Source: Barthelona sp. PCE
Lineage: Eukaryota
DNA: 22,953 nt
Assembly (NCBI GenBank): GCA_040285745.1
Contig: JAUFOR010000005.1
Coordinates: forward strand, 744,001 to 766,953
Reading direction: 5' to 3'
Positions 2,306-22,953 of the stretch are shown here, piece after piece (the stretch's first letter is position 1; each line of letters begins with the position of its first letter). Made by a program: the position numbers and the translations under genes. Below the pieces are notes generated by a model that searched no databases, was not told the DNA's origin, and was given only the letters and a program-made list of their open reading frames with translations.

Positions 2306-2389
2306 GCCAGAGAAAGGGAAAAAAATATTTTACACACTTTTGGGCTCTTGTCCTATTTCACTTTCTTTTATGTGTTGTGGAGTTTTTTG

Positions 2390-2942: not shown

Positions 2943-4811
2943 TCACAAAAAATACTCCATGCTGAACTCATCCAGAACAGTTAGGTTACAATTTTGTAAA
3001 AAATCAAGCAATCTCACATAGAAAGGTTCAAAGCTCAATGAATCATCATTGCTGTTGTAACTAATGTAATTTCCACTGATTTGATGGTTGGTAACTGCTC
3101 TGTTTATCCGAATTGCACCATTTTGTCTGTTGCATATCCAAACACTGTTCTCATAAGGTAGCGTTGCAGACAAAAGCTCAAAACCTTTATCAACAGAACA
3201 TTTAAACACTTCATCATCAATAACCAGTATATTTTCAGCAATAAATTGCATAATTTTCGGTTCTGTTAGACGCTCTAATGTATGCCCGGTTGCACTTCCA
3301 CTCTCGAAATCAAAAGATACAAATTGAACAATGCCTTCTCGACAAAAACCAGCAATATTATGCGAAGCCCATGGATCAGTCACCAAAATTCTAATTTCAG
3401 GTACATCAAACACGATCTTTGAGCTATATCCTCCAATTGTGTTGAAAAACAGTGCTGTTACACCAAAACGTGATGCAATGAACCCAACATCTTCCTGAAT
3501 TGCAACAATCGCAATACCATCATCGAATCTAAGCACAGATCTGTCTCTAGTCATAATGCTGTAATAACCATCAATTAGTAAATGGTTTTCAGTTGCAACT
3601 GCGTACTTGAAGTAACCATCGTTGTGCAGTTCGTCATACGAAATGCTGAATAAAATTTCGTGTGTTTGAATATTGTATACTTCACAACTTTGTTCGAATT
3701 GCTGAACATAAACCTTGTCACTCATCGAAACTAATTGCTTTCCAAACATGGTACCAAGTCCTTTCTTGACCACTAACATATTATCAGAGAACGGATCAAT
3801 TAAAGCATACATATCCTTTGTGGCAAAACCAATGAGACTTGCCTTGCTCCTCAGTTTATACAGTTGGTTAAAACCATTAACTGTGAAAACAGTTGATGGC
3901 CGAGCTTTCGTAACATACATACGATGGATTTCACCATTTGAATACATGAACAGTTCCTCATCTCCTGACATTAGCTGTTCAATAACTGTACACGTGGAGT
4001 CAGTGTGAATGCCAAGTTCTGAAACACCATATATACAATTCTTGTTGGGAGCAAATAAATGGAGCACAGAATCTTTGTATATTGCACCTGTTCCATCACG
4101 ATATGTACAATTAGGTAGCTCTTGTAAAGACAAATACTCGTCTACCAGAAAAGGAACTCCTCCATTACTTGCCAGAAAAAACGCTTTGTTTTTAAAAATT
4201 ATGACATCCTTATACGTTGAGTGACCATGAACACGCATTGAGATCATATGAATGCGGTCTTCCATAAACATCAGCCTTTCCAAAACATCATGTTCGACGA
4301 TCTTTGCTTCCAACATATCTTCATCGTTAAGATACATCACCAAAATTTTCTTTCGGGCCACAGAAACGGTAAAGTAGCAATCACGCCTTCTTCCACAGTG
4401 AGAATTCACACAAATGTAGAAATTTATGTCCTCTTCACAGCGTTGGAGATCTACCGCGGTATCTTTCTGGTCCAAAGTGACTACGTATCGATCTCCAATA
4501 ACATAATCAATATCTCCACCTTCATACGCAATGTCATGCTTGAAAACAAACTCCCCATCGAATAGCTCATAAAAACTTATCCTTCCGTCATTATAGTGAT
4601 AGAATAGCGATGAACAACGACATTGCCTTGGCAGAAACGGTACTTGATGAGCGCAAACGTTACTATGAACGATAATAGGTGGTGCAACCATTTCTTTCTG
4701 TCGTTTTTGCTGTATAATGGAAAACTGAGTCCCAAACGCTGGCAAATATGATGTGTTTGTAATTAAATTACCCTGCTTAGTTTGAATATCAGATTGTATA
4801 AATCGAGGCAT
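2943..4811 (-). CDS. Hypothetical beta-strand-rich (beta-propeller-like) protein, MPR family, ~622 aa
   Basis: Long open frame. The in-frame ATG at 4811 gives MPRF, like the neighbours. Short hydrophobic strands alternate with D/G turns; C-terminal VRLLDFLQNC. Confidence 0.8.
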   Translation of the reverse strand: MPRFIQSDIQTKQGNLITNTSYLPAFGTQFSIIQQKRQKEMVAPPIIVHSNVCAHQVPFLPRQCRCSSLFYHYNDGRISFYELFDGEFVFKHDIAYEGGDIDYVIGDRYVVTLDQKDTAVDLQRCEEDINFYICVNSHCGRRRDCYFTVSVARKKILVMYLNDEDMLEAKIVEHDVLERLMFMEDRIHMISMRVHGHSTYKDVIIFKNKAFFLASNGGVPFLVDEYLSLQELPNCTYRDGTGAIYKDSVLHLFAPNKNCIYGVSELGIHTDSTCTVIEQLMSGDEELFMYSNGEIHRMYVTKARPSTVFTVNGFNQLYKLRSKASLIGFATKDMYALIDPFSDNMLVVKKGLGTMFGKQLVSMSDKVYVQQFEQSCEVYNIQTHEILFSISYDELHNDGYFKYAVATENHLLIDGYYSIMTRDRSVLRFDDGIAIVAIQEDVGFIASRFGVTALFFNTIGGYSSKIVFDVPEIRILVTDPWASHNIAGFCREGIVQFVSFDFESGSATGHTLERLTEPKIMQFIAENILVIDDEVFKCSVDKGFELLSATLPYENSVWICNRQNGAIRINRAVTNHQISGNYISYNSNDDSLSFEPFYVRLLDFLQNCNLTVLDEFSMEYFL

Positions 4812-5025
4812 GAAAAGAAGCAAAAGAAAGTTAACTTTTGTTTATTGTGTTTGTTCTGTGCATATGATCCCTTCTCCACACTAAATGCGATGTTGCACAC
4901 AACCCACAAAAAATGCAACATGCATTTGAAGGAATGCCATAATAGTTGTCTGTCACGTTTTTTATTACCTTCTCTAACTTCTTGAAGGCCGTTTTTTCTT
5001 TCAATCAGCATACAAACGTCAGAAT

Positions 5026-7149
5026 ATGCCTAGAAAGATTAATAATGGTATTAATTTTTGCTTAAAGCTTGCATCGAAGTATAATCAAGTGGATGATGCA
5101 AGTGTGGATGATGATGGGATACTACACGACTCCATTCGTGAGATTTTTTATTCTGAAAATGAGGGCCAGCTAGATTTTGGTGAAAATCATACTGTTGATA
5201 TTTATTTGGGACAAAAAACCAATATTCCTTCTATAAATTCCCATAAGAACATTGTTTCGTGTATGTATTCCACAACAACTGCGTTCAATTTAGGTTCAGT
5301 TCCAAAATGGTGCTCTAGTCTTAAACGATGCGCATGGGATCATATGCTGTACTACTGTGAACCAGAGAGAGTGTTACGAAATGACAAATTCTTAAGTGTT
5401 GCTTTTTTCACCTTCTATTATGGCCAGTTTACTTTTTCGGGAGTTGATGAACTATATAATGTTGACGATAACAAAGAGTTCATTTTCTTGGATCGCAACA
5501 CGTTCATATCATACTCAGGAGAAGATATACAGATGGTACTAATGGAAGAGGGCTTTCCAATTAAGAAGATCTACGTTAAAGGAAAGGATTTTGGCACAAT
5601 AGGGTCATGTTTTTATTTTACGTTCAGGCAAGAAGGTTTTATTATTCGCACGAGGGATTTCCAATCAGATGCAGATATTACCGGTGATCTTGCCGTGTTT
5701 AACTTCCGCTACATTTGTAACCAATCGTATTTACATTCCATGACAGACTGTTTCACAACATGTTTATATGGGATGGAGAGAGATGGATATAGTGAGTTAA
5801 AAGTTCATTATTTTGATGGTGAATTCGTCAGATCCATTAATCTTTGTCTTGCTTTCCCTCAGCTGACCAACATGGCACGAATGTTTAATATTGAGTACTT
5901 GAAACTACAATTGGATGGAGCTGAGAAAGTTATGGTAATGTCCTGCACATTGAACCGACGTGAGTGTATCATAGTTTTTGAAGGCGATGATCGCTTACAT
6001 ATTGAGGATTACTCAACTTACGGATACTTTGGACCAAAATATCCGTTTTCACGTAATTTTGATTATTTACCTCAAATAACAAAGAGATTCATATTTTCAG
6101 GAGGTGATTTATTGAAAACAAGCATGCTGTTGAATATTGATGATCTTTTGCTGTCTATTGATACACGAAGCTATGATATAAAGTGTGTTTTTGAACAAAG
6201 TATCGTTTTTACAACAGGCACTCAAATAATCAACTTTGATTTAGGTGGTCAAACAGTCTATTCGACAGATAAGTGGTCTTTCTGGTCTCCTGGGAACAAT
6301 AAGATGCCAAATATTCACACATCAATGAATGTTGGAGGGTATCTTGTGCTTGTTGTTCATGAAAATAACCTTTTCAACTACTTCTGTTATGATGTCAGAT
6401 CATATAATCCTGCTGATTCTTCCAATGTGATGAGTGGTTTTCTCTTTCGAATAGGTCGAAGACACATTTTGTTGGACATATCAACAGAATACGTTCGTTT
6501 TTGTGTCCATATCAACAATATTTGTAGAGTATATGATTACCTGATTGGTTCCAAGTGTGTTAAGCTGTTATTTGAAATCGATAACTGTCAAATTTCGCAG
6601 TGCACAGGAATTACAGAGAAGAAAATTCAGATAAACTCGGAATACATCTATTATTTTGAATTAAGAGGCGATGAATGGGTTAATACCATGGATGAAAGAA
6701 AGTTTAAACCAAACAGCGGTTGTACAACTGTTGTTTTTGGTGAGAAACAATGCACTGTCAAAGATCTGTTTTCTTATGCAATTACCAGTAATGTGATTCT
6801 TTGTGAAACTGGAGTATATTTGGTAGAGAATGATGGTCTGAGTGCAGAGTTGAATTGTAGAAAAATAGTCGATCTGAAAGGCCAAGGAATTGAAGGATTA
6901 CATATGTTCACTACATTGCTTATGCCAAACAGTTTCGTTGCTGCAAAATTGGATGGAAAGACTTTGCGTCATCGCACCTATATTTTCAATGAGAATGGTG
7001 CTTGCAATATGGAGCAGAACGATATAGACTTATGTAATTACTTCATGAATGCAGTATATTCAGACTTTACTGACTGTTTTGTGGGTAATGATCGGCAATT
7101 ATTAACAGAGAATCTGTGCGAGATAAACATCCATGTTGACCAATTATAA
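5026..7149 (+). CDS. Hypothetical beta-strand-rich (beta-propeller-like) protein, MPR family, 707 aa
   Basis: 707-aa ORF starting MPRK, with C-terminal IDLCNYFMNA. Confidence 0.82.
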   Translation: MPRKINNGINFCLKLASKYNQVDDASVDDDGILHDSIREIFYSENEGQLDFGENHTVDIYLGQKTNIPSINSHKNIVSCMYSTTTAFNLGSVPKWCSSLKRCAWDHMLYYCEPERVLRNDKFLSVAFFTFYYGQFTFSGVDELYNVDDNKEFIFLDRNTFISYSGEDIQMVLMEEGFPIKKIYVKGKDFGTIGSCFYFTFRQEGFIIRTRDFQSDADITGDLAVFNFRYICNQSYLHSMTDCFTTCLYGMERDGYSELKVHYFDGEFVRSINLCLAFPQLTNMARMFNIEYLKLQLDGAEKVMVMSCTLNRRECIIVFEGDDRLHIEDYSTYGYFGPKYPFSRNFDYLPQITKRFIFSGGDLLKTSMLLNIDDLLLSIDTRSYDIKCVFEQSIVFTTGTQIINFDLGGQTVYSTDKWSFWSPGNNKMPNIHTSMNVGGYLVLVVHENNLFNYFCYDVRSYNPADSSNVMSGFLFRIGRRHILLDISTEYVRFCVHINNICRVYDYLIGSKCVKLLFEIDNCQISQCTGITEKKIQINSEYIYYFELRGDEWVNTMDERKFKPNSGCTTVVFGEKQCTVKDLFSYAITSNVILCETGVYLVENDGLSAELNCRKIVDLKGQGIEGLHMFTTLLMPNSFVAAKLDGKTLRHRTYIFNENGACNMEQNDIDLCNYFMNAVYSDFTDCFVGNDRQLLTENLCEINIHVDQL

Positions 7150-7409
7150 CTGATGTTGAAGTCATGAAGGGTATATGGAGCACATTAAATAATACATAGC
7201 GCAACAATCCGAATCAACACAAGCTACAAAAAAAAAATAATATCAAATGTCATACATCAAAGTATTTGTAATGTTGTGATACAATATTAGTTATATTGTA
7301 AAACATTTAACTGAACTCAAACTTAAAAAAGACCCAAATTCATTAATTTTTAAAAATAATTTCGAAAACTTCAACAACCCTCTTGTAATTATCACAAATA
7401 TGCTCTCAA

Positions 7410-7440
7410 TCATAATTAAGTGAGTCTCACTTAATTATGA
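7410..7440. repeat. Perfect 15-bp inverted repeat with 1-nt spacer
   Basis: TCATAATTAAGTGAG-T-CTCACTTAATTATGA. Confidence 0.95.
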
Positions 7441-7539
7441 AAGTAGTAAATATGGACTCAATGTAAGATCAAGGTTTGTTTTCCCTTTTAACCACTTAAT
7501 CTGTGTAGTTAAATTTAATAGAAACAGTGTACGCCGAGA

Positions 7540-8535
7540 ATGCCACAAATCACAGCTTTTGAACACGAACAAGACAAACCCACCTATCACATTGAACAAC
7601 ATCAGTACTCAGGAATTGATTCGTTGGATTTCATTGGCGGTTCTGAGCATATTTTTTACGTTGAATACGGTGATAACACAACAGTATCACTTAAGATTAT
7701 CAGAGTTGCTGATAATTCCGTTGTGGATTCTTTGGATTTTCATGATGAATTTCGAATCGATGTTGATGAGTTCCTTATCCATCGAGAAAATGATGCCCTT
7801 GTTATATTTGTTATGAATGGATCTGGTTACTATCATGTGAAACTAGATTCGAATTTCAGGATTTTGAGCTCAGAATACATATCACGCAGCTTGGTGTACT
7901 CTTGTTTAACAGTGGACAACGCAACCCTTTACTACCTTACTCGAAGCTTTTCCGAATCAGGGAAGTTAGATTACAAAGTTGTTGCTACTGGTTTGAGGGG
8001 TGAGAATCCAAGAACTATATTTGAGCAGGAATGTGATCTTATTGATGATATATACGCGCAAAAAGAGATTTTGTTTATTCTTGATGTTGACAGATTGATA
8101 ATTATCGATACGAAAAACAGTAATTCGATTTTTATTGAAATCAACCACAATGAAGCATATCCTGTAGTGGTAGATGATCTATATAGTGCTGAATTTGATT
8201 GTTTTATTATGTTTTTTAAGGATACAGAGGAATATAAGTGTCTTGTTTTGAAGCGAGATCTGAATTACGAAATTTTTAGCACTGAAATTTCCTCTGAAGA
8301 AACTGACTTTAAAATGTGCACTTCCAAACTTTTGGCTATTGATGAGAGTATCTATGTTATTGAGAATATTGATTTTAATCTCAAAACCCTTCAATTTACC
8401 AATGTTTTACTTGAGCAGTCTGAAGATGCTTACTCTGCTATGAATGCAGCATGTGGGAATAGAATACTCTCTGTTGAATATAATGATGACATGTCAGTAT
8501 TTGATGGAGTTTTATCAATGTTTTTCAAGAATTAG
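7540..8535 (+). CDS. Hypothetical acidic beta-rich protein, probable MPR-family member, possibly C-terminally truncated
   Basis: 331-aa ORF starting MPQI. The same frame continues past TAG (8533) and TAA (8563) into FPLFEMLFQA, which resembles the family C-terminal motif. Confidence 0.7.
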   Translation: MPQITAFEHEQDKPTYHIEQHQYSGIDSLDFIGGSEHIFYVEYGDNTTVSLKIIRVADNSVVDSLDFHDEFRIDVDEFLIHRENDALVIFVMNGSGYYHVKLDSNFRILSSEYISRSLVYSCLTVDNATLYYLTRSFSESGKLDYKVVATGLRGENPRTIFEQECDLIDDIYAQKEILFILDVDRLIIIDTKNSNSIFIEINHNEAYPVVVDDLYSAEFDCFIMFFKDTEEYKCLVLKRDLNYEIFSTEISSEETDFKMCTSKLLAIDESIYVIENIDFNLKTLQFTNVLLEQSEDAYSAMNAACGNRILSVEYNDDMSVFDGVLSMFFKN

Positions 8536-9543
8536 GTGGTAAATAGTGATAGCAATAAAGTATAATTTTTCTCTAAAAATCATTTGGTTAACCAATCAAG
8601 ACAAAGGAATTTTCCACTCTTTGAAATGCTGTTCCAAGCAGTCAATGATGAGAGGCATTGTGTCACTAGCATACTGCAAAAACATATGGAATGTCTCAAT
8701 ATCCCGATTCCTAATAAAGAAATAGAAAACATTAAAACACAACATACTCTGAGTGCTACCCTCAGATGTTAACTTCAAATCTGAAAATTAGTGATTTGTA
8801 AGCATATGCAGTTGTACAATATTCTTATGAAGCACCCATATCGTACATCCATTTGTAACGATACCTTGTATAAAAAATTGAATTTCGGTTCCCCTTATTA
8901 TTCAATTTTTAAACCTTCGTCTCTTTCAACAAACATACATCAGTCGAACAGCCTGTCGGCAACTGGATCTCTTCCTAAACATATGTCACTAAAATTGGAA
9001 TCGTTGGACAAGATTGGCATCATGACTTTCGTAATGCAACCAAAAGAGTGGTTCAGTCCAGCACAAACTCAAAAGGCGTTTGGACGTCGATATCATCGTC
9101 CTCAAGTCCGCGCTTTACGGTTGGCATCATGTAAATCAGGAAAATCTGATGAGAATTAGGCTGAAAATTTGGAAACAGAAGTTTTGGCGCAGTCCAGCAT
9201 CCAGCGGTGCATGCAGCGGTGTTTACTGAATGCTTATGCATGTGCAATGAAGCACGTCCCAAAAGGCGGCTGCTTCGAGCCGTACCCACAACGCAGCAAA
9301 AAAGTGCCCCACAACCAAGCCAATGCCCACACGTGCCAACAATCTTACGTGTCACGCGCTACAAGCCCTGCGAACCACATCAATAAATCTGTGAGCGGAT
9401 AGAAATGCGAATGCAGTTCTGTTTCACATTCTCGCTTTCTGTTTACGCTTCTCGTGTATTATATCATCTATATATGCCACGTGCAAGCACTAATATTTAG
9501 AAATACATGCTTTATCACTGTTCACCTACTTCATTACAGCTAT

Positions 9544-11647
9544 ATGCCTAGGGTTCGTAAATTCGAGGACGACCTTATCATGCATGCATATCCTGAGGGG
9601 CAGCTTATATTTGAGGGCCAGGGTCTAATATTGCTTAAGTCAAGGGAAAACATCAGCCTCATTGAAAGCGCCATTGAAGGCAAGGACTTTGTTGGGTATG
9701 TGGAGGATACGCGTAAGCCTCTTCAGCACACATCCAAATTAAAAGCTGGAGAATCTTACATGATTATCGATGTGCTTCGTGATGTGCTTCGTGATGACGA
9801 TAATATTGTAATCCATATTGATATCTTATTATTTAGTGATATCATGAGCGATGAACATACAAGCAGAAGAATATCCTTCCCATTTGAGATCAGTCTAACA
9901 AGCGAAATAATTCCGATTGATGAAAACCATCTATTATTCACCTTTTGGGAAATCGTTAACAGACGATCACATACCCGTAGACATAGATGCTGCATATTAA
10001 ATGTTATAACCGAGGAATATAGATGTCTTGGAGATTATGTTCAATCAATCATTAATTCAAACAACTACATTATGTTAAGGAAATACCAAGATGATACCAC
10101 ATGGCATTACAATTTTTCTGCAGATGACATGGACGATGCACATGAACCTGATATTGAGCAGTTAGATGGTGTTAATTTAAAATTCTTCGGGTGTTACAAC
10201 TCGGATTGCATTTTCTCAGTCAGGTTACTTATGGGGAATGTTGATGAACTAATAATATTTGACAGTCAGAGGAACCAAGATAACTTGACAGAAAGGTTTC
10301 CACAGCTTAAAGGATTGAATATTCCAAACAGCCCAGATATGGGATTATTTGAGCTCACTCAAGATGTTTTGTCAATGGTATTCATTTATGTAAGATGTGT
10401 GGTAGTTCATATCGAAAACGGTGAATTGAAGATGTCAGAGGGTAAACTGAATTTCAAGAATGTAATTTGCGATGGCTTGAAGCATATAGATTTGAACGAT
10501 AATTACTTTCATCATGAAGATTGTGTTTTTTATGGTGTTGATGAAATAACAGGAAGTTATGGCCCAATCAAATTCAGAACAGTTGATAATGACGTTGTGC
10601 GTTTGAAAAGTCTTCAACCAAGAGGAATTTTTTTTGACGGAATAGCGGAAGTGTATGGTCATATCGCTTCAATAAGATGTTACTTTTTTTTCAGAAAGGA
10701 AGCTTATTGTGCTGCGTTGGCGTAGGAAACTGCTTTCACGTATGTGGTGCCATATCTTATCAGTTCATCCAAATGAAGGAGATGATTTTTTTGTAATGGC
10801 AGAGGACCATGGTGAAACAAATACATATGTCAAAATTCACTGGCGCTGGTCAGAATCCAAACCTGTCACAACCATTTTACCTCATTGCGGTTCTATAAAC
10901 TATGGTTTTATTCTTGGGTTGCCCTTAAATGTTGACTATCGTGAAGATACAGAACTGGTGTATTTGGGAGAAAAGGTGATTTTAGAGCTTCCCCCGAATA
11001 TTTATATTCGAAGTGTTCATGGTTCACATTTTGATAATTCAGCGTGCATTTTATGTGAAGAAGCAATCCATTTTTTTCAGCTTAATGTCAACGGGTATGA
11101 CGTGGAGGTTCAAAAGCACATTGTTTTTGAACATGAATATTTATATGATGTTTACTTCAACCCTCGTCCATTGGCTGAAACACCTGATCATCAGCTGTTT
11201 GTTGTACATAGACGCAGTGAAGAAGCAGCAACGCAACATTTACACTGTTTAGATTGGTCAACAGGAAGCTTCTTAGAGCCTGTTCTCCTTTGGAAGAGAT
11301 CATATGATGATGAAGCGGAGGAAGGCAACTATTTCCGTAATTTCTTGGGTGATTCATACATACAGGTGAGGGGTGGTATCATTAAAGTATACGTTGAAGA
11401 TGGTGCAATTGAAACGCATTTTTACATAAACGACAGTTTACCATATGAATTGAACATAAGCCACGATCCAAATCTGCCCAATAACACTGTTCAAGACATG
11501 TCATACGAAGAAGAGACCAAGACAATGGTGCTGAAAACTTACAATATTGAGGAAGACCCGGAATCGATCAATCCCACAGTGGAATCGTTCCACCTTCCTT
11601 CGTTTATGGCCAAGGCGTCCATCGTTGAGTACCATATGCCCGATTAA
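9544..11647 (+). CDS. MPR-family beta-propeller-like protein, paralog of 13411..15531, split by one frameshift at a T8 run (10684-10691)
   Basis: ORFs 9454..10725 and 10709..11647 align collinearly with the intact paralog (MPRVRKFE...; CYFFF-x-E-x-KLIVL; ...FHLPSFMAKASIVEYHMPD). The break lies in a homopolymer, so it is either a sequencing error or a young pseudogene. Confidence 0.8.
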
Positions 11648-11881
11648 CATGCCCAGATGAATAATGAATAGCTTCATTACCTTAGCATTAAAAAAGACAC
11701 TTTTTTTTGAACACTTGTTATAATGGAACAAATTTTTTTAAATTCAGCATAATTCATTTCTGCTTCTGAATCATAGGTAACACCTAATGACATATTCCCG
11801 CAAGTACAATTGGTAAAAGTAAACAAAGAATAGAATAACAAATGTAGTTCAATTTTTCACATGCCTAAGGTTCCAATTTAT

Positions 11882-13345
11882 TTATTTAATTAATACTAGA
11901 AAAATAATAACAACTAAAGCTATAAAAAATGAATATAATGTACATTTTTCACAATCCTCAATAGGCTTATGGGAATACTCCAAATTGGTTAAACCTTGCA
12001 TGGTTATGTTTGCATGTATTTTGTTTAAAGGAAATTCCAAAAAAATGCTGTTTTTGTGGCTAAACTTTGCAGAAATGACTTTGTTACCAAAAAATCTCTT
12101 GCCAATTTTAAAACATCCGTTCTTGCTAATTCCATACAAATAAAGAGTACTGTAACCGATAACATCAAAGTTTGGTACATTGGCACAAATAACCATATAA
12201 TGTTCATTTACCCTCATCAAATATGCAGCATCAGGTTCATAAACCTCTACAGTTGAAAAACTCTCTCCTGTGACATCATTAACTAAGATCAATTTTCCGT
12301 CATTGGACATCAATTCAAAGCTGCCATCTCTGGTAAGCACCTTCCCATCACCTTCCTCCATCTTCGGGTTCGCAGCCGCATGCATTGTTGCAGCTATTGA
12401 GGGCAATGACTTTTCTGGTTGTTTTTGCTTCTTAGGCTTCGGTTCCAGATCAACGCACACAGAAACGCTTCCTCCAAATGAAGGTGCACTGGGTTCAATT
12501 ATATCAGCGACTGTTAGCGTTTGGTAATCCTCACTGGAAATGGAATTCATCCTCAATTCATCCGTTGTCTCGTACTTTTGGTTAGCATTAGCAGTGCTCA
12601 TTGTGTACATCTCCTTGTTTAGAAACGAAAGCGTCACAAACACAATCTCATCGCGCATTGCCATGTTACAGGCATCAAACGAATAGCTGTTGCTCGCTGA
12701 GATAGAAATGTCCAGCTCAGTCACAATATGCGGAAGAGTCGTATGCTCTCCAGAATCTATATTGTAAAGGCCGATAATAGACTCATTCAGATGCAGATGC
12801 TTGGTGGCGATCACCCAGTTGTGGGGGCAAAGGAAAAAACTTATAATCGGAAACGGAAGATGGTGCTCGGTTCTGTTCACGAGCGATCCGTCGTTAAGTA
12901 CTAAGTAAGTGGTTATGACGTTTTGGTTAGCACCGATGATGCCCAGATTCCTGTCATACACGCACATGTGAGTGCAAACTTCCGGAACAACGACACGGTT
13001 CAGAATTTCAATACCATCATCGTTGTATGTGAAAGTAACAAAGTGCGTCTCGCACACCCCATCTCTGTTGCTATTGTTGACGATACCGATGGCTCCGTAC
13101 GTGTCACCGCACGACATCAAGACCTTTTCAGGATTTGTTCCGTTGATGAGTGATGACACGTCGTTGTTAAGCTGCGTGTCGATGAACGTGCCCCCTGTGC
13201 TCGAGTGCAGGGTAACTTTCCACGCACCGCCGTCAGACGGGGAGAGCAAGATATGAACGTGTTTGAACGTGCATTTTGAAGCGTAATTGGGCGCCTCCCG
13301 GGCTATATCCGCGATTTTTCGTGCTTTTGATGCATTTCTGCTCAT
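11882..13345 (-). CDS. Hypothetical beta-rich protein with C-terminal transmembrane helix (predicted tail-anchored)
   Basis: 487-aa ORF ending LYSFFIALVVIIFLVLIK-stop, with no evident N-terminal signal peptide. Confidence 0.8.
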   Translation of the reverse strand: MSRNASKARKIADIAREAPNYASKCTFKHVHILLSPSDGGAWKVTLHSSTGGTFIDTQLNNDVSSLINGTNPEKVLMSCGDTYGAIGIVNNSNRDGVCETHFVTFTYNDDGIEILNRVVVPEVCTHMCVYDRNLGIIGANQNVITTYLVLNDGSLVNRTEHHLPFPIISFFLCPHNWVIATKHLHLNESIIGLYNIDSGEHTTLPHIVTELDISISASNSYSFDACNMAMRDEIVFVTLSFLNKEMYTMSTANANQKYETTDELRMNSISSEDYQTLTVADIIEPSAPSFGGSVSVCVDLEPKPKKQKQPEKSLPSIAATMHAAANPKMEEGDGKVLTRDGSFELMSNDGKLILVNDVTGESFSTVEVYEPDAAYLMRVNEHYMVICANVPNFDVIGYSTLYLYGISKNGCFKIGKRFFGNKVISAKFSHKNSIFLEFPLNKIHANITMQGLTNLEYSHKPIEDCEKCTLYSFFIALVVIIFLVLIK

Positions 13346-13410
13346 AAATTTCGAGCTGAAAGAGGTTATGAAAATTTGTTCATTGTTTTCAGTATTCTCA
13401 CCACATCCAC

Positions 13411-15531
13411 ATGCCCAGGGTTCGTAAATTCGAGGAAGGCCTTGTCATGCAGGCTTATCCTGAGGGGCAGATGATATTTGAGGGAAAGGGCGTAGTATTG
13501 CTTAAGTCAAGAGAAAACAAAGATATAAGCCTCATTGAAAGTGTCATTGAAGGCAAGGACTTCGTTGGATACGTTGAGAATACGCGTGAGCCTCTCAAGT
13601 ACACATACAAGGAAAGAGCTGGAGAATCTTACATGATCATCAAACAGCTTCATGGTTACGATAATATTGTAACCCATCTTGATATCTTATTATTTAGTGA
13701 AATCATGAGTGCTGAACATACAAGAAGGAGAATACGCTTCCCGTTTGACAACATAGAAAGGTTTCAAATTAGCAGAATATTTCCGATGGATGAAAACCAC
13801 CTACTATTCACCATTAGTGATACCGTTAATAACAGACAAGTGATTCTGTGCTACATATTAAATGTGCTAACCGATGAATATAGATGTATTGGAGAGTATA
13901 GCTCTCAACCAACCGTTAATTCAAACTACATTTTGTTAAAGAAATGCCAAGATGATACCATATGGCATTACAATTTTTCTGCAGATGACATGGACGAGGC
14001 ACATGAACCTGATATTGAGCAGTTACATGGAATCTATTCAGGATGCATCAGGTGGTGTTTTAACTCGGATTGCATTTGCCTAGTTAGCTTTCGCGATCAA
14101 GAAATTGATGAACTAATAATATTTGACTGTCTGAGGAACCAAGTTAACTTAACAGAAAGGTTTCCACAGCTTAAAGGATTGAATATTATGAAAAACTCAA
14201 AATTTGCATTATTAACGCTCACTCAAAATGTTTTGTCAATGGTATTCATTGGATTTGGATCAAGATGTATAGTAGTTCATATCGAAAACGGTGAATTGAA
14301 GATGTTAGAGGGTGAAATGAATTTTTGGAATGTACTCTGCGATGACTTTAAGCATATAGATTTGAACGATAATTCTTCCTTTCATCATGAAGATTGTGTT
14401 TTTTATGGTACTGATAAAATAACAGAACGTTATGGCCCAATCAAATTCAGAGCAGTTGATAATGAGGTTGTGAGTTTGAACAGTCTTCAGCCATCTAACA
14501 TCTTTTTTGATGGAATAGTGGAAGTGTATGATGATGACTCTTTGATAAGATGTTACTTTTTTTTCAAAGAAAAGAAGCTTATTGTGCTGCATGGGTGTAG
14601 GAAACTGTTTTCACGTATGCGCTACGAGATCCAATCAGTTCAACCAAATGAAGGAGATGAATTTGTTGTATTCGCAAAGGTACATGGTTGTGCATATAGC
14701 AAATTATGCTGGACAGGCTCAGAATCCAAGCCAATCACAACCATTTTGCCTCATTGTGGCTCTAAACACTTTGGATTTATTCAAGGGCTGCCCATCAATT
14801 TTGAATTTGATGATTATACACAACTGGTGCATTTGGGAAGTGAGCTGATTTTGGAACTTGATGATGTTAATTTACGAAGTGTTCATGGTTCACATTTTGA
14901 TAATTCAGCGTGCATTCTGTGTAGAAATTCAATCCATTTTTTTCAGCTCAATGTCAACGGTTATGATGTGGAGGTTCAAAAGCACATTGTTTTTGAACAT
15001 GAATATAATGATGTAATAGTTTACTTTAACCCTCGTCCATTGGCTGAAACATCTGATCATCAGCTGTTTGTTGTACATAGACGCAGTGAAGAAGCAGCAA
15101 CGCAACATTTACACTGTTTAGATTGGTCAACAGGAAGCTTCTTAGAGCCTGTTCTCCTTTGGAAGAGATCATATGATGATGAAGCGGAGGAAGGCAACTA
15201 TTTCCGTAATTTCTTGGGTGATTCATACATACAGGTGAGGGGTGGTATCATTAAAGCATACGTTGAACACGGTGCAATTAAGACGCGTTTTTTCACTAAC
15301 AATAATTTCCCTTATGTGAATATAATCCACGATCCAAATCTACCCAATAACACTGTTCAAGACATGTCATACGAAGAAGAGACCAAAACAATGGTGCTGA
15401 AAACTTACAATATTGAGGAAGACCCGGAATCGATCAATCCCACAGTGGAATCGTTCCACCTTCCATCGTTCCTGGCGGAGGCTTCCATCGTTGAGTACCA
15501 CATGCCCGATTATCATGAACAATGTTGTTGA
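13411..15531 (+). CDS. MPR-family beta-propeller-like protein, 706 aa
   Basis: Intact ORF starting MPRVRKFE, collinear paralog of 9544..11647, with C-terminal FHLPSFLAEA. Confidence 0.85.
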   Translation: MPRVRKFEEGLVMQAYPEGQMIFEGKGVVLLKSRENKDISLIESVIEGKDFVGYVENTREPLKYTYKERAGESYMIIKQLHGYDNIVTHLDILLFSEIMSAEHTRRRIRFPFDNIERFQISRIFPMDENHLLFTISDTVNNRQVILCYILNVLTDEYRCIGEYSSQPTVNSNYILLKKCQDDTIWHYNFSADDMDEAHEPDIEQLHGIYSGCIRWCFNSDCICLVSFRDQEIDELIIFDCLRNQVNLTERFPQLKGLNIMKNSKFALLTLTQNVLSMVFIGFGSRCIVVHIENGELKMLEGEMNFWNVLCDDFKHIDLNDNSSFHHEDCVFYGTDKITERYGPIKFRAVDNEVVSLNSLQPSNIFFDGIVEVYDDDSLIRCYFFFKEKKLIVLHGCRKLFSRMRYEIQSVQPNEGDEFVVFAKVHGCAYSKLCWTGSESKPITTILPHCGSKHFGFIQGLPINFEFDDYTQLVHLGSELILELDDVNLRSVHGSHFDNSACILCRNSIHFFQLNVNGYDVEVQKHIVFEHEYNDVIVYFNPRPLAETSDHQLFVVHRRSEEAATQHLHCLDWSTGSFLEPVLLWKRSYDDEAEEGNYFRNFLGDSYIQVRGGIIKAYVEHGAIKTRFFTNNNFPYVNIIHDPNLPNNTVQDMSYEEETKTMVLKTYNIEEDPESINPTVESFHLPSFLAEASIVEYHMPDYHEQCC

Positions 15532-16429
15532 TGGACTGAAAATCAGATAAACAAATATTCAGACTGGTGTCCAACAAACATTCTTTACTAAAAATAATTG
15601 TGATTTTTAAAATTGGTGTGTTCTATGTTATTCCCTTATGAGGTTATTGTGAGTTCTGAAAGATGTTTTTATGAAAATTCTATAATCAAGATAAAAAGGG
15701 CGCTTTGGGATTTTTTTTTATAGTTTTTTTCATTCTTTACTTTTGCACATTATTTTTTAATGTATTTTGAAAATATTATGTTATCAAGAAACGATGACGT
15801 AGAACTTTTCGACTTCAATTGGATACCATGTTAACTATTGAATTTCTTATATATGGCAACAGAAGACTTGAACGATGAGGATTTATTTTTTAAGTTTTCT
15901 CTTTCTTGTTTACAAGGAATCATGCTCTGCGTTTTCTAAACATATGTAATGGTGCCTGAACGTTTTTTATTCGAATTTAACATTTTTTCCGCTTTAAATA
16001 TTTATAGTTGTTTGGTGGAACAGGCTGGCTTACCATACATGCGTTTGTTATTATTTTTATTCTTATTTGTACCATGGACTTACTGAATATCAAACCGGTG
16101 GTTGATGCTTAAAGGAATCATAACATTCTAAAATGAAATACATAAAGACCGTCTCTGGTCACATATTCATGATATACTAGATACGTGAACATGATAATTT
16201 TAGTTCTCCTGAATACACTGTAGAGATTACTTTTGATAAAAATGTCTCCGAAACATTAATTATTTTTCTAAAAAATAAATACAAAATAGCAATAAGAAGT
16301 TCAATAATCATTATTATTTGAGCAGTAGTTAATGATAATTGATCCCTATCGTCCATAAAGTTTGATTTTGAAGTGTATAAGTGAGTTGAATGAACTTTCA
16401 ATATATGACTTAAATCCAACCAATGAGTG

Positions 16430-16666
16430 GGTGACATATAGGCTAGCCTTCAGACTTTATACTTGAGGTAGTAAACAGCGAAGGGGGACGAAGCGAACCT
16501 TCTTGTGTGGATGGTGTTCCTGGAACCCTACATAGTTTTTGTCTTCCCTTTTTTTAAAAAATAAAAAGGGGTATTGAGCCAATTCCAGGACGAAACACAC
16601 TCCACGCTTGAAGGCTCGCCTTCCTGTGTGAGCGTTCCCCGACGTCAAAAAACCTACTTCAGTATA
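16430..16666 (+). ncRNA. Unidentified structured RNA-like element, copy 1 (short form)
   Basis: Closing stem TATACTTGAGGTAG (16458-16471)/CTACTTCAGTATA (16654-16666). Nested stems GGGGGACG/CGTTCCCC, GTGTGGA/TCCACGC, GTGTT/AACAC, CCTGGAA/TTCCAGG, CCCTTTTT/AAAAAGGG. G.U pairs indicate the + strand. Homologous to copy 2 with compensatory changes. Transcript ends are unknown. Confidence 0.7.
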
Positions 16667-17203
16667 AAACAGCGAATTATAAACATGCATTTTCGTTGAT
16701 TTTATTTGAGTGCAAAAAATATCTATAAGAGGATTGACTTAGACTTTCTCACTTGCACTTATGGAATTGAGAACCATTGGCATGGTGAACGTAACGATTT
16801 ACAAAGAATGACAGAGAAACAGTAAGAATCATATCCAATATGCTTCATAGTAGCTGTTGTAATCCTGTTAAATGGCTAGCATAGGAAGCATTAAACATCT
16901 CCTCAAGTATGAGTGATATGGTCGGAAGAAAAATAGGAAGAAATTTCAAAAATTCAAAAACATGCCTAAAGCCACTAATGATACAGTATAACTCGTGCAA
17001 ACCTGTCCAACGTGCGCTTTTACCGTAATTAATTAAACTAATTCGGCCCAGGAAGAAAAATACAACTGGAAATGCCCACATAACCGCATATACTCATTTA
17101 TAATGCCAGGAGACATACTTCTATTCCCAGTTAAACTGTTGTGACAAATATTTTAACGTTGTAACATGATGTAGGGGTGATAAAATTTAAACCTTAAAAT
17201 AAC

Positions 17204-17692
17204 GGTGACATACAGGCGCTAGCCTTCAGACTTTATACTTGAGGTAGTAAACAGCGGAGGGGGACGAAGCGAACCGTCATGTGTAGTAGGTGTCCGTAGG
17301 ACCCGATACGGTTTTTCTTACCTTTTTCAAAAAAAAAAGGTTTTAGGCCACTTCCCGGACGAAACACCCTCTACACGTGAAGGCGAGCCTTCCCACGTGA
17401 GCGTTCCCCGACGTGATTCTTACTTCGAGTGCATGTTACTCTATCAAAGGAGTAAAACTTGCTAGTGTGTTTACTGAGTTTCAGAGTGGGATTCAGAAGA
17501 AGACGAGCCTACTGAGGACGCAGGTACCTCGTACCTACACCCACAATAGTTTAAAAATAAATAAAATAGTAAGTCTCAAAAGAGGGAAGAAACGTAAATC
17601 TACGTTTTCCACCTCTTTCTCGTCTTCTTTACTCTCAGTAGACATCAACAGACAGCCAGGGGCAACAAGATCAATAAACCTACTTCAGTATA
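17204..17692 (+). ncRNA. Unidentified structured RNA-like element, copy 2 (long form with ~257-nt structured insertion)
   Basis: Same leader, closing stem (17234-17247/17680-17692) and nested stems as copy 1. An extra domain at 17415-17671 has its own stems. Confidence 0.7.
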
Positions 17693-17971
17693 AGAACTAT
17701 AATTCATATTCAGTAAGTGATGCTCATATTACTACTATTTAATCCATAGTATTATTTTTAAAACTTCAATACATTATAATATAAATATTTATTCCTTTTT
17801 TTTTAAATTTGATTATTAACGAATGTTTTTATGTTGAAATGGTGAAATTATAAAGAGAAATTATGAAAAAAGCAATTTTACAATATAGAATAAATCGGTA
17901 TTGAACACAAGCTCAGAAACAGCAGATTATTTATGGTATTTACTTTAAACATTTAGAGAATTATTTCTGGG

Positions 17972-18051
17972 ATCAACGTGGCCGAGTGGTTAAGGCGCCA
18001 GATTCAGGTTCTGGTCTTTCGAGATCGCAGGTTCGAGTCCTGTCGTTGATA
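17972..18051 (+). tRNA. tRNA-Leu (anticodon CAG)
   Basis: Acceptor ATCAACG/CGTTGAT plus discriminator A; D arm GCCGAGTGGTTAAGGC; anticodon arm CCAGA-TTCAGGT-TCTGG; long variable arm TCT-TTCG-AGA; T arm GCAGG-TTCGAGT-CCTGT; followed by T5. Confidence 0.96.
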
Positions 18052-18056
18052 TTTTT
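18052..18056 (+). terminator. Pol III oligo-dT terminator of tRNA-Leu
   Basis: TTTTT directly after the discriminator base, with a T9 run a few nt later. Confidence 0.75.
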
Positions 18057-18138
18057 ACAAGTTTTTTTTTGGGTTGGTATTCCTGGTAATGAGCTAAAAC
18101 AATGCTTGAGTCATTTCCGTTATTATACGTTTGTATAA

Positions 18139-18210
18139 GTCCCATTGGTGTAATGGTACCACGCTACATTCGGGTTGTAGAGATCGGGGGTTCGATTCCC
18201 TCATGGGACC
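18139..18210 (+). tRNA. tRNA-Pro (anticodon CGG)
   Basis: Acceptor GTCCCAT/ATGGGAC plus discriminator C; anticodon arm CTACA-TTCGGGT-TGTAG; T arm GGGGG-TTCGATT-CCCTC; 72 nt. Confidence 0.94.
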
Positions 18211-18212
18211 TG

Positions 18213-18219
18213 TTTTTTT
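18213..18219 (+). terminator. Pol III oligo-dT terminator of tRNA-Pro (could double as the A-tail of the opposite-strand retroelement)
   Basis: T7 two nt after the tRNA end. Confidence 0.7.
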
Positions 18220-18222
18220 GCT

Positions 18223-18728
18223 CTAATATTTTCGCAATAGTAGTTTAAATGAAACTCACGTGGAATTTTAAGTTTGATAATATTTTTATTAGTAGCTCGG
18301 CTGAGTTGTCGCTCAATCCATTAAGCACAATAATTTGTGAATGAATACTGGCTCATGCTTATTACTGTGGTAGATTAACTTATACGAAATAGATAGCTCG
18401 CAGCTCCCGAAGAAGTAGTTTTTATCAAATGGGCCTGCCTTATCTGATTTCACTAATACAATATATTAGCGATTCTTTTATATATTCGCGTGGAATTTAG
18501 TATTGGCTAATATTTGTGTTTGTGAACTCTTTGAGTTCGCATCACTATTGTTAAGATTTTTTTATGATGCCCAACTTTTGGAATTCACTAATATTTTTAT
18601 TAGCAATTCGCTTAAAGTGAGCACAAGTAAATTTTTTTATTAGGCGCTAATAAATTATATTAGGGAGAAAATGAATAATTGGCGAGAAATCTCCGTTTAC
18701 TAACATTTTTATTACTAATATTTTTGAG
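18223..18728. repeat. Dispersed array of ~9 degenerate CTAATA-(T-rich)-TATTAG mini-hairpin motifs
   Basis: Copies start at about 18223, 18278, 18453, 18507, 18588, 18627, 18647, 18700 and 18715. CGTGGAATTT precedes the copies at 18278 and 18507. Confidence 0.75.
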
Positions 18729-18880
18729 ATGGTCAAAACAAATCAAACTCCGCCGAAACGCGCATAGACCAAAATTCTTGGTCTATTTCAATTTTGGTAG
18801 TAAATAGTTTATTAATTTTCGAGCAAGCTGTCCCGGATTCTCGTATGTACTGTTCCTTGGTCTTCTGCTAACTGTTAGTA

Positions 18881-21800
18881 TCAGACTCTACGCCTGCTCC
18901 TTGCTGCCCTCATAATGTTCTTCATAGCATAAGCGTGAAAAGCAAATAGATGGTAGCTAAGACCTTTTTTAAGTTTCGTTCCACTGGTCTTAATTGATTG
19001 CGACGTTGATCTCTCGTTCAACGACTCGAGCACCTGTTCCCACGACGTGTAAGCTAGCTCGAAATTGTATTTCTCGCGTGCCTTCGACGTCGGTTCCCAC
19101 AACATCGGATCCCAAATGGCTCCTCCGTGCGCAACGGCCATAATCTTGACCGGCGGGTCATCAAAGTTTTGTACTTATTTAGCTTCTTGTAAAAATAGGC
19201 TGCACGTACGTGACCTCGATCTTTGCTCGTGAACGGCGATGTAGTCATAACATCCACCACAACCTTGGGTCCGCTTGCTTCCAGTATTGCAAAATCTGGT
19301 CGCTTACGTTCTTTCCGATTGGGGCACGACTCACCACTTTCGTACCGTTCATGTGTCCAACCCAATTGTACACGATGTATGTCACTGTACTCCTCAAACT
19401 TTCTTTTAGGAATTGGCTTATCCAAGTTGAAAATATGAGCATTTCCTGATTTTCGAACAGTATCAACTGTTTTCTCAAGAATGTTGTTGTGCAGTTTGAC
19501 GACAAGACCGTGATTTTTTTGAACAAGAATAATGATGACTTCTTCTGTCCAAAACCTTCTCTCCACAGAAGTTGCACCGCCCAGAGGCGTACATTTCGCG
19601 AAGTTCAGGGAACAACAATTGGTATATACCGGCTAAAGCATAACCAAACATGTAACGCTCATCAAACATTGAATGAATATTGGCAACTGACCTTTGGGGC
19701 CATGTGGCGACGGTAGCATCGAGTGACCAGGCAACAGAACGCTGAGACATCAAGGCGTCTCGGGATATAAATGATTCTGGATGGAAACGACAATGTTTGA
19801 TCGCATAATCAAACAATTCGAAAAAACGTTTTGTGAGAATGTTTTGTAGTTTGCTTTTTTTGACGCACAATATTAGTAGCCATACTGATCTCAACATCGT
19901 ACGACTCCATCTGAGTGTGCTGCCCATAGTTTACGGCAAGCCACAGTAAATTTGAAGCAAATTCATGCTTTGTTTCACTGTTAAGAGAAACTGCTTCCAC
20001 AAGTTTGTGTTGGCAATCCTCATCTTGGTAATGAGCATCCGGCATAAAGTAGGGTTTGTTATCTTTGTCATAGTTGAATCTAGCTGCGGCCAAATAACGT
20101 GGGCTAAGCCTAGTGAAATCCGACCACTCAATCAAATTGAAACGCTTGATTGAGCTACTTACCGAAGCGGTACTTGCCAAGTCAGCTATTTTGTGGAGAA
20201 ACACAAAGTCTAGACAACCAGTCCCACCAAGAGACAAAGGATAACGGAGAGTTGGAGCTTCATCGATCGATAACTCATCGGCTCCAGGAATCATCTCAAG
20301 AAGTAAATTCTGTTTGATGGTCCTTTCCATATCATCAACTGCATCTTCAGTGAGAGTCACCGAGCGTACGTGATGAATGAGCATCTGATCAATCGACATA
20401 GAAGCAAGATACTTGAACAAAGCTGTCCCTGGACTTATATACTCGAGAAGTTGTTTGACGCCATTGCTAAATCTTGCGCATGCATGACTAACATTAAAGT
20501 CGCCAATCTGAGTACCTAACAATTGATAAAAGCTAAGCTTAAGTTGTGGGTAGCGATGTTCTCTTGCTCTTCACCTCTTGGAAATATCCTTGAAGCGAAA
20601 GCAATACTCCCGGCTCCATACCCCACCAGCTCACACTTCTCAGCATTCACTTTCAGGTTATAGAACTCGAGCTTACCCTTGATTACATCAAAGGTTGACA
20701 TGACAGTTGATGGTTCACCAACAATATAAATATCGTCAGCATACGCGTACATATTGACTGAATCTGGGGCTACGGCTTTCGTATCCTTCAACACTTCAGC
20801 AATAAGAAGAGCAAACAACAACGGAGACGTTGCGTTACCCTGTAACACGCCCATACAACTATCAAAAAGGAAGGCGCTCTCCATTCGACCAAATCGGAAT
20901 TGGCCTTTTGCACATCTGATGATATGCTTGGAAGCACCAAGGAGCATGTGCAGCGACAATATGCAGCAGCTTGTCACGACGAACGCTGTTGAAGGCGTTA
21001 GCAATGTCAATAACAAGAGCAACATTACGATCACTTCGCTTTAGATTGACATCAACGAGGTTTGCGACCAGAGCAGTAGCATCCCGCATCCCAGCACCGA
21101 ATTGTTTGTGTTTAAACAAGTACTTTTTGACACGTTCAGACTGAAACTTCAGATCTTGACTCGCGATGATCTTATCAGCGATACCACCGAGTGCAGAGGC
21201 AACTGCGATGGGGCGTACAGGCATATGCTCACCCTCTTGAAGCTCCTCCACATGCTTTTTTGTTAAGAGCAATTAGTCGGATATTCCAAAGGGCCCACGG
21301 GCGCGATCCGAACGCATAATCATTGATAACTTGAGTAAAAGCATCCATGTAGCGATCGTTACGATAGATTTCAGCCACAAATAACTTAAGTAAATATGGC
21401 ATCACTCCATCGGCACCGGCAGAAATGTACTTTTTGACTTTTTTGGTGGTCTCATACACCATATCTTTCGATATTATGAATTCCTCAGGGTCCCACTCAC
21501 CTCTCTTGAAAGAACTCATGGTTTCGCGCAGAATCGCATCAGAAACTGGTGCACTGACTGGATGCTTTGATTGCATCTGTTCCAGCACGTTAGTATCTGA
21601 TAAAGGCATGGTACCTTGACTCTTTGCTAGCCTTATGGCCTTTCCTGGTTGGTTGGCGTCTGCGTACTTCTTCATACGAAGGCTTACAGACTCCCTAGAC
21701 TCAACGGATGGCTGATTGGAACGTTGCCTCGGCGTCTTACCAAAACATAGCGCAGAAGCTGCAACTATTAGAGCCTCGCCTATACATCGTTGAGACTCAC

Positions 21801-22953
21801 GTAATGGAGTATTCCGTATTAACAAACCAATCTTCAGGACACAGAAATATAGCTTTCTTGATTTCTTATCACCAATTAAATTATCTTGGTTCTCGATAAC
21901 TTTCTGAAAAACAAACTCATTAAAAACTTCTAGAGCATCGTCTTTGTCTAGGTCTGGTCGTAAAGAATGTAGAGCCAGGACCCCGGACAATTTGTTGACA
22001 AACTCCTTGATTCTCACAAGTGTTTCAATATTACCGCTCTGCCACTGAGGCAATCGCGGTGGATTAGCGCAATAAGCGCCCAGAAGTTCTCCAAAGAAAT
22101 CTTCAGCAACTCTTCTCTCAGCAATTTCGCTATTACCGTCAGTTGCACAAAGTCGATTGAATCGGACCAGCGGGTCGTACAGTAAAATGGGGAAAGTGTA
22201 TTCCATACGAGAACTTGAAACTGGGTATGTAACATTGCTCATAATAGGAGGAGCTTGGTTGGTAACACTGCTCGTAACAGGAATTGAAGGCGTCGGGTTA
22301 GTATCTACCGGGTCAACATCCAATGTATGTGACTGTGACTGGTTCCGGTTAACCAATGCTGGCGCTCCAACTTCTTGGAAGACAGAATCATGCGATTCTG
22401 GATCACTTTCCACCTTAAAAATATGACTGAGTAGAGGAATCATTCTACTACTAAAAAAATGGGAAGAGCTCGTACAAGTTTCTACTTCCATTAAATTCCA
22501 AACAGGCCTTGATAAACGCAAACATCACGAAATAGAAATTATCCGTGAACGGTTCTACATTCTGCCAATGATAAACATTCTGGCCACGCGAGTCCATTCT
22601 GAATTTCATACAAGACACACTTCTAACGAAATTGATTGCTGCCGGATGTAAAATCCTGCAACGCTCATCTTCCTTTTCCTCAGAAGCGACACGCCTTATA
22701 GTGTCATCCAAATGTGTGAATCTCTCGTCTCCAAACTTCTCATTGATAGCATGTACAATCTCGTTTGCATCAACGCCAGTGCTGCATACTTTCAGGATAG
22801 CATGTGCAATAACGAGTTGTCCTCGTGTACCTGGGCTTGAAAGACGTACACCAACGGTTTCCATCTTCTCACCTTCAATACTGCGTAAAGACAACCAATC
22901 TGCGTCAGTGCACAAGCCACTCCACTGATCATGAACATTTTGTCGAATTATTT
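18881..22953 (-). pseudogene. Single RT-RLE polyprotein ORF (>1350 codons, open to window edge) interrupted by seven frameshifts
   Basis: Eight overlapping minus-strand ORFs tile collinearly into one protein. Every junction contains an A/T homopolymer, and no nonsense codons are needed to explain the breaks. It may be intact in vivo. Confidence 0.8.

Follow-up and report, generated by a model that had tools for sequence, protein, structure and literature searches.

The stretch of Barthelona sp. PCE DNA analyzed here, 22,953 nucleotides (nt) of contig JAUFOR010000005.1 (assembly GCA_040285745.1, positions 744,001 to 766,953, forward strand), which we call the window, contains two diverged copies of a sharply bounded element with an exceptionally stable predicted fold and no match in Rfam. 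The two copies are a reasonable candidate for tandem paralogues of an unclassified, lineage-specific and selectively maintained structured noncoding RNA (ncRNA) gene of this barthelonid metamonad, a reading that we favor tentatively. Barthelonids branch deep within the metamonads, and the core splicing RNAs of their relatives were missed for years because they have diverged so far. The element may prove to be a disguised form of a universal RNA that is still missing, or a lineage-specific ribonucleoprotein (RNP); if it is instead a foldback repeat, it is ordinary. We found no published account of barthelonid ncRNAs, and the main text of the genome paper, supplements apart, contains no mention of small nuclear RNA (snRNA), ncRNA, transfer RNA (tRNA) or Rfam.

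Two copies with sharp boundaries

The original prediction, made from the letters of this DNA, had described two diverged copies about 775 base pairs (bp) apart with a common leader, and it was right on both counts. The copies lie in direct orientation with a start-to-start spacing of 774-776 bp.

16430..16668, + strand: copy 1, the short form (~239-243 nt), with leader, terminal helix, helix B, long arm and hairpin D
17204..17694, + strand: copy 2, the long form (~491 nt), with a copy 1-type core and a 263-nt extra domain before the 3' strand common to both

The copies are 80.7% identical over 216-218 nt (218 aligned columns), to which is added a separate 3' block of 23 nt with 95.7% identity. 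The leader common to both reads GGTGACATA[T/C]AG..GCTAGCCTTCAGAC. With the boundaries placed where similarity between the copies stops, the unit ends are sharp in both, GGTGAC at the 5' end and CAGTATAA at the 3' end, and the 300-nt flanks upstream and downstream resemble each other only at the level of shuffled sequence. Searching the whole window by blastn with a word size of 7 returned the two copies and nothing else alike, and the 15-mer CCTACTTCAGTATAA is present exactly twice in the window.

The element is noncoding. Indels of 2 and 7 nt separate the copies and exclude a conserved reading frame. The protein-coding reading was rejected for this reason and because the long open reading frames (ORFs) spanning the element have no Pfam match; these ORFs have no protein relative either.

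Both copies fold into the same architecture

Both copies are far more stable than their dinucleotide shuffles, as is each long arm by itself. The minimum free energy (MFE) of copy 1 is -83.8 kcal/mol (z -5.03, 0/200 shuffles as stable) and that of copy 2 is -150.8 kcal/mol (z -4.68, 0/100 shuffles as stable). The same helices were recovered independently in the predicted folds of the two copies, and they define the following parts.

16430..16499, + strand: 5' module of copy 1, nearly invariant; its copy 2 counterpart is 17204-17275
16456-16471 with 16654-16668 (copy 1) and 17232-17247 with 17680-17694 (copy 2), + strand: strands of the terminal helix
16654..16668 (copy 1, CTACTTCAGTATAAA) and 17680-17694 (copy 2), + strand: 3' strand of the terminal helix, in duplex with the 5' strand
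16483-16490 with 16633-16640 (copy 1) and 17259-17266 with 17402-17409 (copy 2), + strand: helix B, GGGGGACG/CGTTCCCC
16505..16607 (copy 1) and 17281-17376 (copy 2), + strand: long arm, ~100 nt
16610..16623, GAAGG-CTCG-CCTTC (copy 1) and 17379-17392, GAAGG-CGAG-CCTTC (copy 2), + strand: hairpin D, seen in the consensus fold

The terminal helix, which the original prediction had described as an end-to-end closing helix with the same bulge and G.U pair in both copies, is indeed present in both MFE folds and comprises 15 bp with one bulged U and one G.U. The duplex between its two strands is worth -16.2 kcal/mol, a value matched by none of 1102 other 20-mers (from 15600-19000) and by none of 2000 shuffled tails. 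Its 5' strand lies in the 5' module, which consists of a leader with a small AGGC..GCCT hairpin, this 5' strand, GTAGTA (16468-16473), a joiner TAAACA and the 5' strand of helix B. Helix B, likewise predicted, is present in both MFE folds, as is a GCG/CGT helix; the internal loop between the two reads AA/GA in copy 1, and copy 2 has a tandem GA/GA there.

As for the long arm, both copies have the ACGA(A) bulge that had been noticed in it, 4-5 nt in size (16590-16594 in copy 1, 17359-17363 in copy 2), and an invariant GTTTTT stands 5' of an apical T-run/A-run stem (16535-16540 and 17311-17316, respectively). A U.A-U triplex between this GTTTTT and the apical U/A stem would be geometrically possible, and is an idea only. 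Folded alone, the long arms reach -34.8 kcal/mol (z -3.9) in copy 1 and -28.8 kcal/mol (z -2.9) in copy 2. The GAAGG-cNNg-CCTTC hairpin of the original prediction, our hairpin D, can form in both copies; all five of its stem pairs are invariant, and the two middle letters of its loop differ between copies. The leader hairpin region is complementary to the hairpin D region at 12/13 positions, which reflects the AGGC-NN-GCCTTC that they have in common. In addition, GGACGAA occurs twice in each copy.

Conservation is uneven along the element

Substitutions are distributed very unevenly. Identity is 97.1% in the first 72 alignment columns, falls to 68.9% across the long arm and rises again to 83.8% in the 3' part (Fisher p = 1.5e-5). 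Columns 1-72 contain two substitutions in 70 ungapped columns, and the long arm holds 32 of the 40 substitutions, so that 31% of its aligned positions are substituted. The 3' strand of the terminal helix is part of the 3' block kept at 22/23 positions, across an insertion or deletion of 263 nt. Three G.U pairs are conserved in both copies.

In the long arms, stability is retained better than under random relocation of the same substitutions (p = 0.011 and 0.004), and for the whole core this relocation null gives p = 0.0007 in one direction. Threading copy 1 onto the fold of copy 2 is significant for energy only (p = 0.007). In a curated model of 43 pairs, 33 pairs never vary, three change on both sides, three change on one side and four are broken in copy 2; 95.3% of its cells are paired, versus 43-61% with the 3' partners slid. 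Three covarying positions had been proposed. One of them, a G-C to A-U change in the outer arm, appears in a plain alignment and stands, whereas the other two depend on how the copies are aligned: the second needs a 1-nt register shift, the helix as aligned being the one with the four broken copy 2 pairs, and the third falls in the slippable T-run/A-run stem, where MAFFT gives two C-G to U-A changes instead.

The + strand is favored, if not firmly, by the folding energies. Over the ~240-nt core its advantage over the - strand is ~7.7 kcal/mol in both copies, and the + structure mirrored onto the - strand loses 9.4 and 19.3 kcal/mol.

Searches outside the window were made with several parts of the element. 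Scans of metagenomes with a 20-mer of the invariant module and with a two-block helix B pattern gave 0 matches, as did a scan of viral contigs for an exact DNA pattern of the element, and a protein search for further copies with the 77-aa minus-strand ORF over copy 1 gave zero candidates. A scan of prokaryote genomes with a 17-mer gave 73 matches, roughly the chance level by our own rough estimate; none of the 73 has the partner strand, an upstream GTAGTA or a downstream GGACGAAAC.

Copy 2 has an extra domain and a second possible 3' partner

The difference in length between the copies is accounted for by a domain present in copy 2 only, at the start of which lies a second, diverged version of the 3' strand.

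17416..17678, + strand: extra domain of copy 2 (263 nt), between helix B and the common 3' block
17419..17430, + strand: proximal diverged 3' strand of copy 2 (CTTACTTCGAGT), at the place of copy 1's 3' strand

The extra domain is predicted to fold into a Y shape made of two 12-bp stems, one of them the outer stem, and two hairpins (MFE -69.6 kcal/mol, z -3.36, 2/200 shuffles as stable). It has no Rfam match and no similar sequence elsewhere in the window. The proximal and distal 3' strands of copy 2 share a local alignment, TACTTC(G)AGT, at p ~0.05-0.06 versus shuffles; this direct repeat is compatible with either of two histories, an insertion into copy 2 or the loss from copy 1 of the sequence between the repeats. 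The proximal strand forms a duplex of -12.3 kcal/mol with the 5' strand, in which we count by eye 11 continuous pairs, three of them G.U. Since one 5' strand thus has two possible 3' partners, copy 2 is predicted to be able to take either a short or a long fold.

Comparison with known RNA families

We compared the element with the 4227 models of Rfam 15, which include U1-U6, U11/U12, U3, the signal recognition particle (SRP) RNA, RNase P/MRP, telomerase RNAs and self-cleaving ribozymes. With the gathering threshold applied, the sole matches are two tRNAs, and neither copy is among them. At E<=10, over 1.5 kb and with each copy searched alone, only unrelated families appear, with 10.7-21.6 bits against cut-offs of 42-94; the RNaseP_nuc and RNase_MRP models have no match at this level, in a model search with no separate motif scan. 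The Rfam search that had been proposed as a check on novelty therefore yields no significant match for either copy and leaves that novelty unrefuted.

The original prediction had also reported no diagnostic motifs of known RNAs, and a motif scan agrees. The consensus of the Sm site is RAU4-6GR; RAT{4,6}GR is absent from both copies, and T5G is found in copy 1 only. The U6 box ACAGAGA is absent from both, the nearest sequence being ACAGCGA. Box C (consensus RUGAUGA, scanned as TGATGA) is absent from both copies, and box D (CTGA) is absent from copy 1 and found only inside the extension of copy 2. The hammerhead core is missing in one or both copies. The only scanned motif that the copies share is GTAGTA, at 16468 and 17244. 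GTAGTA apart, the element shows no defining feature of any candidate known RNA family, and none of the resemblances considered, to human U2, U12, U3, 7SL and telomerase RNA, is backed by a model match.

That the element is nevertheless a universal RNA diverged beyond the sight of Rfam, be it a U2/U12-like snRNA, SRP RNA, telomerase RNA, RNase MRP/P RNA or U3, is improbable. Such a reading draws on the host, a barthelonid metamonad whose relatives' snRNAs escape Rfam, and on several likenesses, each of which comes with a difference; against all of them stands the fact that each copy, searched alone, has no such family at E<=10. A likeness to U2 is seen in the invariant module, where a 4-bp hairpin at nt 11-22 is followed by GTAGTA, the sequence of the U2 branch-point-binding hexamer GUAGUA (expected near nt 33-45 and accessible for pairing). 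In both MFE folds, however, this hexamer is paired inside the terminal helix, and its burial there counts to some extent against U2. The element is comparable to the diplomonad U2-type snRNAs of Giardia and Spironucleus in that a small 5' hairpin precedes GTAGTA within an invariant stretch and the upstream DNA is AT-rich, and these snRNAs are metamonad RNAs that are hard for standard models, as passages of PMC3510501 and PMC6679479 indicate. In particular, the difficulty of recognizing the Giardia snRNAs can be explained, according to PMC3510501, by how far they have diverged, and in Spironucleus, according to a passage of PMC6679479, covariance models built for the purpose rather than those of Rfam gave only U2 (in both species) and one U5. 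The element differs from these RNAs in having no conserved Sm site, no recognizable stem-loops IIa/IIb/III and no model match, besides the sequestered GTAGTA.

The topology of the element is SRP-like, with a short 5' hairpin domain, a long helix joining the 5' and 3' ends and a distal three-way junction with two hairpins, and a length of 240-490 nt fits 7SL RNA. The loops of hairpin D, though, are CTCG and CGAG and not a GNAR tetraloop, the conserved helix-8 loop motifs are lacking as well, and the internal T5-T7 runs speak against an SRP, P or MRP-type gene transcribed by RNA polymerase III. A comparison with telomerase RNA is invited by the enclosing helix, the three-way junction and a 13-nt unpaired loop in copy 1, in which the 7-nt ACCCTAC (16525-16531) complements TAGGG-type repeats; the loop lies beside U-rich/A-rich tracts that could in principle form U.A-U triples. 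The Giardia telomerase RNA is described as still unknown in a passage of PMC10999387. Copy 1 could on this basis be imagined as the first metamonad telomerase RNA, with ACCCUAC in its 13-nt loop as the template, next to a U/A hairpin able to form a triplex, and copy 2 as a template-dead paralogue, which we regard as highly improbable. The CCCTA/ACCCTAC sequence is found only in copy 1 (16526) and is lost in copy 2, and it lies in the least conserved segment (69% identity). A template, complementary to about 1.3-1.8 telomere repeats, ought to be conserved above everything else, and this speaks against a telomerase RNA.

Points against selection and alternative explanations

A number of results weigh against a selectively maintained RNA gene. 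With only two sequences covariation cannot be demonstrated, and the level seen is reached by 64 of 500 shuffles, which is not significant. Threading copy 2 onto the fold of copy 1 breaks 13 of 62 pairs (p = 0.17-0.26), the relocation null for the whole core is not significant in the other direction (p = 0.10), and in one helix a 1-nt register shift accounts for the four of 43 curated pairs that are broken in copy 2 as aligned. What forms the apical stem is a T-run/A-run palindrome of low complexity, within a region of 35% G+C. Partial gene conversion could also yield uneven conservation. The strand preference is not seen throughout: the two strands of the full 491-nt copy 2 are equal (-150.8 kcal/mol for + and -150.5 for -), the long arm of copy 2 is slightly better on the - strand (-31.7 versus -28.8), and G.U pairs number 5 and 15 in the - strand folds versus 7 and 14 in the + strand folds. 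Of the earlier proposal that G.U pairs favor the + strand, what survives is the energy advantage of the core, and not the G.U counts, which are alike. No promoter or terminator element common to both copies is found in the 300-nt flanks, and the neighbors of the locus are a dead retroelement, short repeats and paralogues specific to the lineage, surroundings in which repeats are common. A functional ncRNA under structural selection, as originally proposed, is accordingly upheld in part: the element is bounded, structured, unevenly conserved and absent from Rfam, while selection cannot be proved from two sequences, its only positive statistics being the long-arm relocation tests and one of the two threading tests. 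The sequence evidence fits a functional ncRNA that is new or very diverged.

The same observations have to be read in the light of other explanations. The element could be a nonautonomous mobile or foldback repeat, retro-copied or resembling a miniature inverted-repeat transposable element (MITE), in which the hairpin is an inverted repeat of DNA copied twice into a repeat-rich region; we consider this unlikely. As in foldback elements and MITEs, the whole element is one long hairpin with sharp ends between unrelated flanks, in surroundings rich in retroelement and tRNA sequences: a frameshifted reverse-transcriptase remnant is 1.4 kb away, tRNA genes adjoin, and tRNA genes are common landing zones of mobile elements. 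The equal folding of full copy 2 and of its long arm on the - strand points the same way, and the 263-nt insert of copy 2 is bracketed by the diverged direct repeat TACTTC(G)AGT, which resembles a target-site duplication. But the inverted repeat falls short of the 5' end of the element, where 26 nt of leader lie outside it, and no target-site duplication was seen around either copy when the flanks were read by eye. Neither the retroelement nor any other part of the window resembles the element, and just two copies are present within 23 kb. Unlike in a repeat that decays uniformly, conservation is strongly uneven, the stability of the long arm is kept despite substitution of 31% of its positions, and the three conserved G.U pairs are kept on one strand.

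A neutral tandem duplicate of AT-rich palindromic intergenic DNA, with no function and with compensation arising by chance and alignment slippage, is quite improbable. It would account for the nonsignificant covariation, for the one threading and the one refolding test that fail, for the low-complexity apical stem and for flanks with no shared promoter-like element. It would, however, lead one to expect even decay that includes the flanks, instead of 70 columns at 97% next to flanks at shuffle level, and it sits badly with a terminal 3' strand kept across a large indel and with fold z-scores near -5 in both copies. Finally, rather than a free-standing RNA the element could be a structured part of a longer transcript, that is, an untranslated region, a structured intron of the diplomonad type or a processed precursor, which we hold to be very improbable. 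In part of PMC3510501, Giardia ncRNAs are described as made from mono- or dicistronic precursors that are cut at a short conserved 3' motif, and, according to passages of PMC3510501 and PMC6679479, base pairing is what keeps the parts of long introns together in diplomonads and Trichomonas. The element likewise has a short conserved 3'-end element, which in copy 2 occurs twice, before and after the extra domain, as in a dicistronic precursor, and the four RNA-type genes of the locus are all on one strand. Yet there are no convincing exons or ORFs beside the element, and CCTTYNHTHAA, the published search pattern for the 12-nt Giardia motif (PMC3510501), is absent from the 3' elements and matches only a T-run in the long arm of copy 1. 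The Giardia motif is also predicted to be single-stranded, in the relevant passage of PMC3510501, whereas the 3' strand of the element is fully paired; in a passage of PMC6679479 the motif is reported as not conserved even in Spironucleus.

A possible mode of action

If the copies are indeed ncRNA genes, the shared architecture suggests how the RNA may work. It would be read from the + strand, probably by RNA polymerase II, which we propose because the internal T5-T7 runs would stop polymerase III. The 15 nt at the 3' terminus would clamp the invariant 5' module into the long terminal helix, which would define and protect both ends of the RNA and stack on helix B, itself predicted to close a three-way junction. 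Junction and leader together may offer a protein platform, made of two near-identical AGGC-NN-GCCTTC hairpins, two GGACGAA and a tandem G-A/A-G internal loop, so that the RNA would serve as a stable RNP scaffold, with the long arm as a fast-evolving stability arm in which pairing is kept and sequence is not. Copy 2 could adopt either a short fold like that of copy 1 or a long fold enclosing the 263-nt Y-shaped domain. It is possible, though rather doubtful, that the pair founds a barthelonid-specific class of RNP RNA unrelated to SRP RNA, snRNA, small nucleolar RNA, RNase P/MRP or telomerase RNA, characterized by a 58-nt invariant 5' module clamped by the 3' end and, in the long paralogue, by a 3' switch with two partners.

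Genomic neighborhood

The window is compact DNA of 32-45% G+C with long intron-free ORFs. The original prediction had placed the element in a cluster with tRNAs and a retroelement, and both neighbors are real; blastn of the window found no sequence link between the copies and either of them. Two tRNA genes lie downstream of copy 2, each identified by ARAGORN and by the Rfam tRNA model.

17972-18051, + strand: tRNA-Leu(CAG)
18139-18210, + strand: tRNA-Pro(CGG)

Their Rfam scores are 58.8 and 58.0 bits, respectively. They are 87 nt apart, on the same strand as both elements, and the T-run that directly follows each of them is what one expects of a polymerase III gene. At least five copies of an AT-rich motif, (C)TAATATTTTTATTAG, partly inside 38-nt repeats, come after tRNA-Pro and before the retroelement (18256-18720). 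The retroelement itself, degenerate and on the minus strand, occupies ~19054-22951 with broken ORFs around it, and its 3' side faces the tRNA genes; its RVT_1 domain is divided between two frames (20862-21272 and 20516-21034, with E-values of 2.2e-12 and 3.8e-4).

On the other side of the element, the ORF upstream of the copies encodes 706 aa and has 43 protein relatives, all 43 in Barthelona sp. PCE, with 45-78% identity. A segmental duplication (9454-11651 / 13398-15517, in blocks 75-95% identical with a spacing of ~3865 bp) carries two paralogues of a ~700-aa family that lacks a Pfam domain and whose 43 relatives all belong to Barthelona sp. PCE. The upstream paralogue, split into overlapping frames (9454-10725 and 10709-11647), is probably frameshifted. 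In the region 707-15531, none of the ten large ORFs scanned (312-707 aa) has a Pfam family at E<=0.001; lineage-specific genes seem to be clustered there. At the edge of the window (3-683) a gene is represented by its 3' end, which codes for a beta-propeller-like region and, after it, a FYVE zinc finger (E-value 2.5e-18 for Pfam FYVE).

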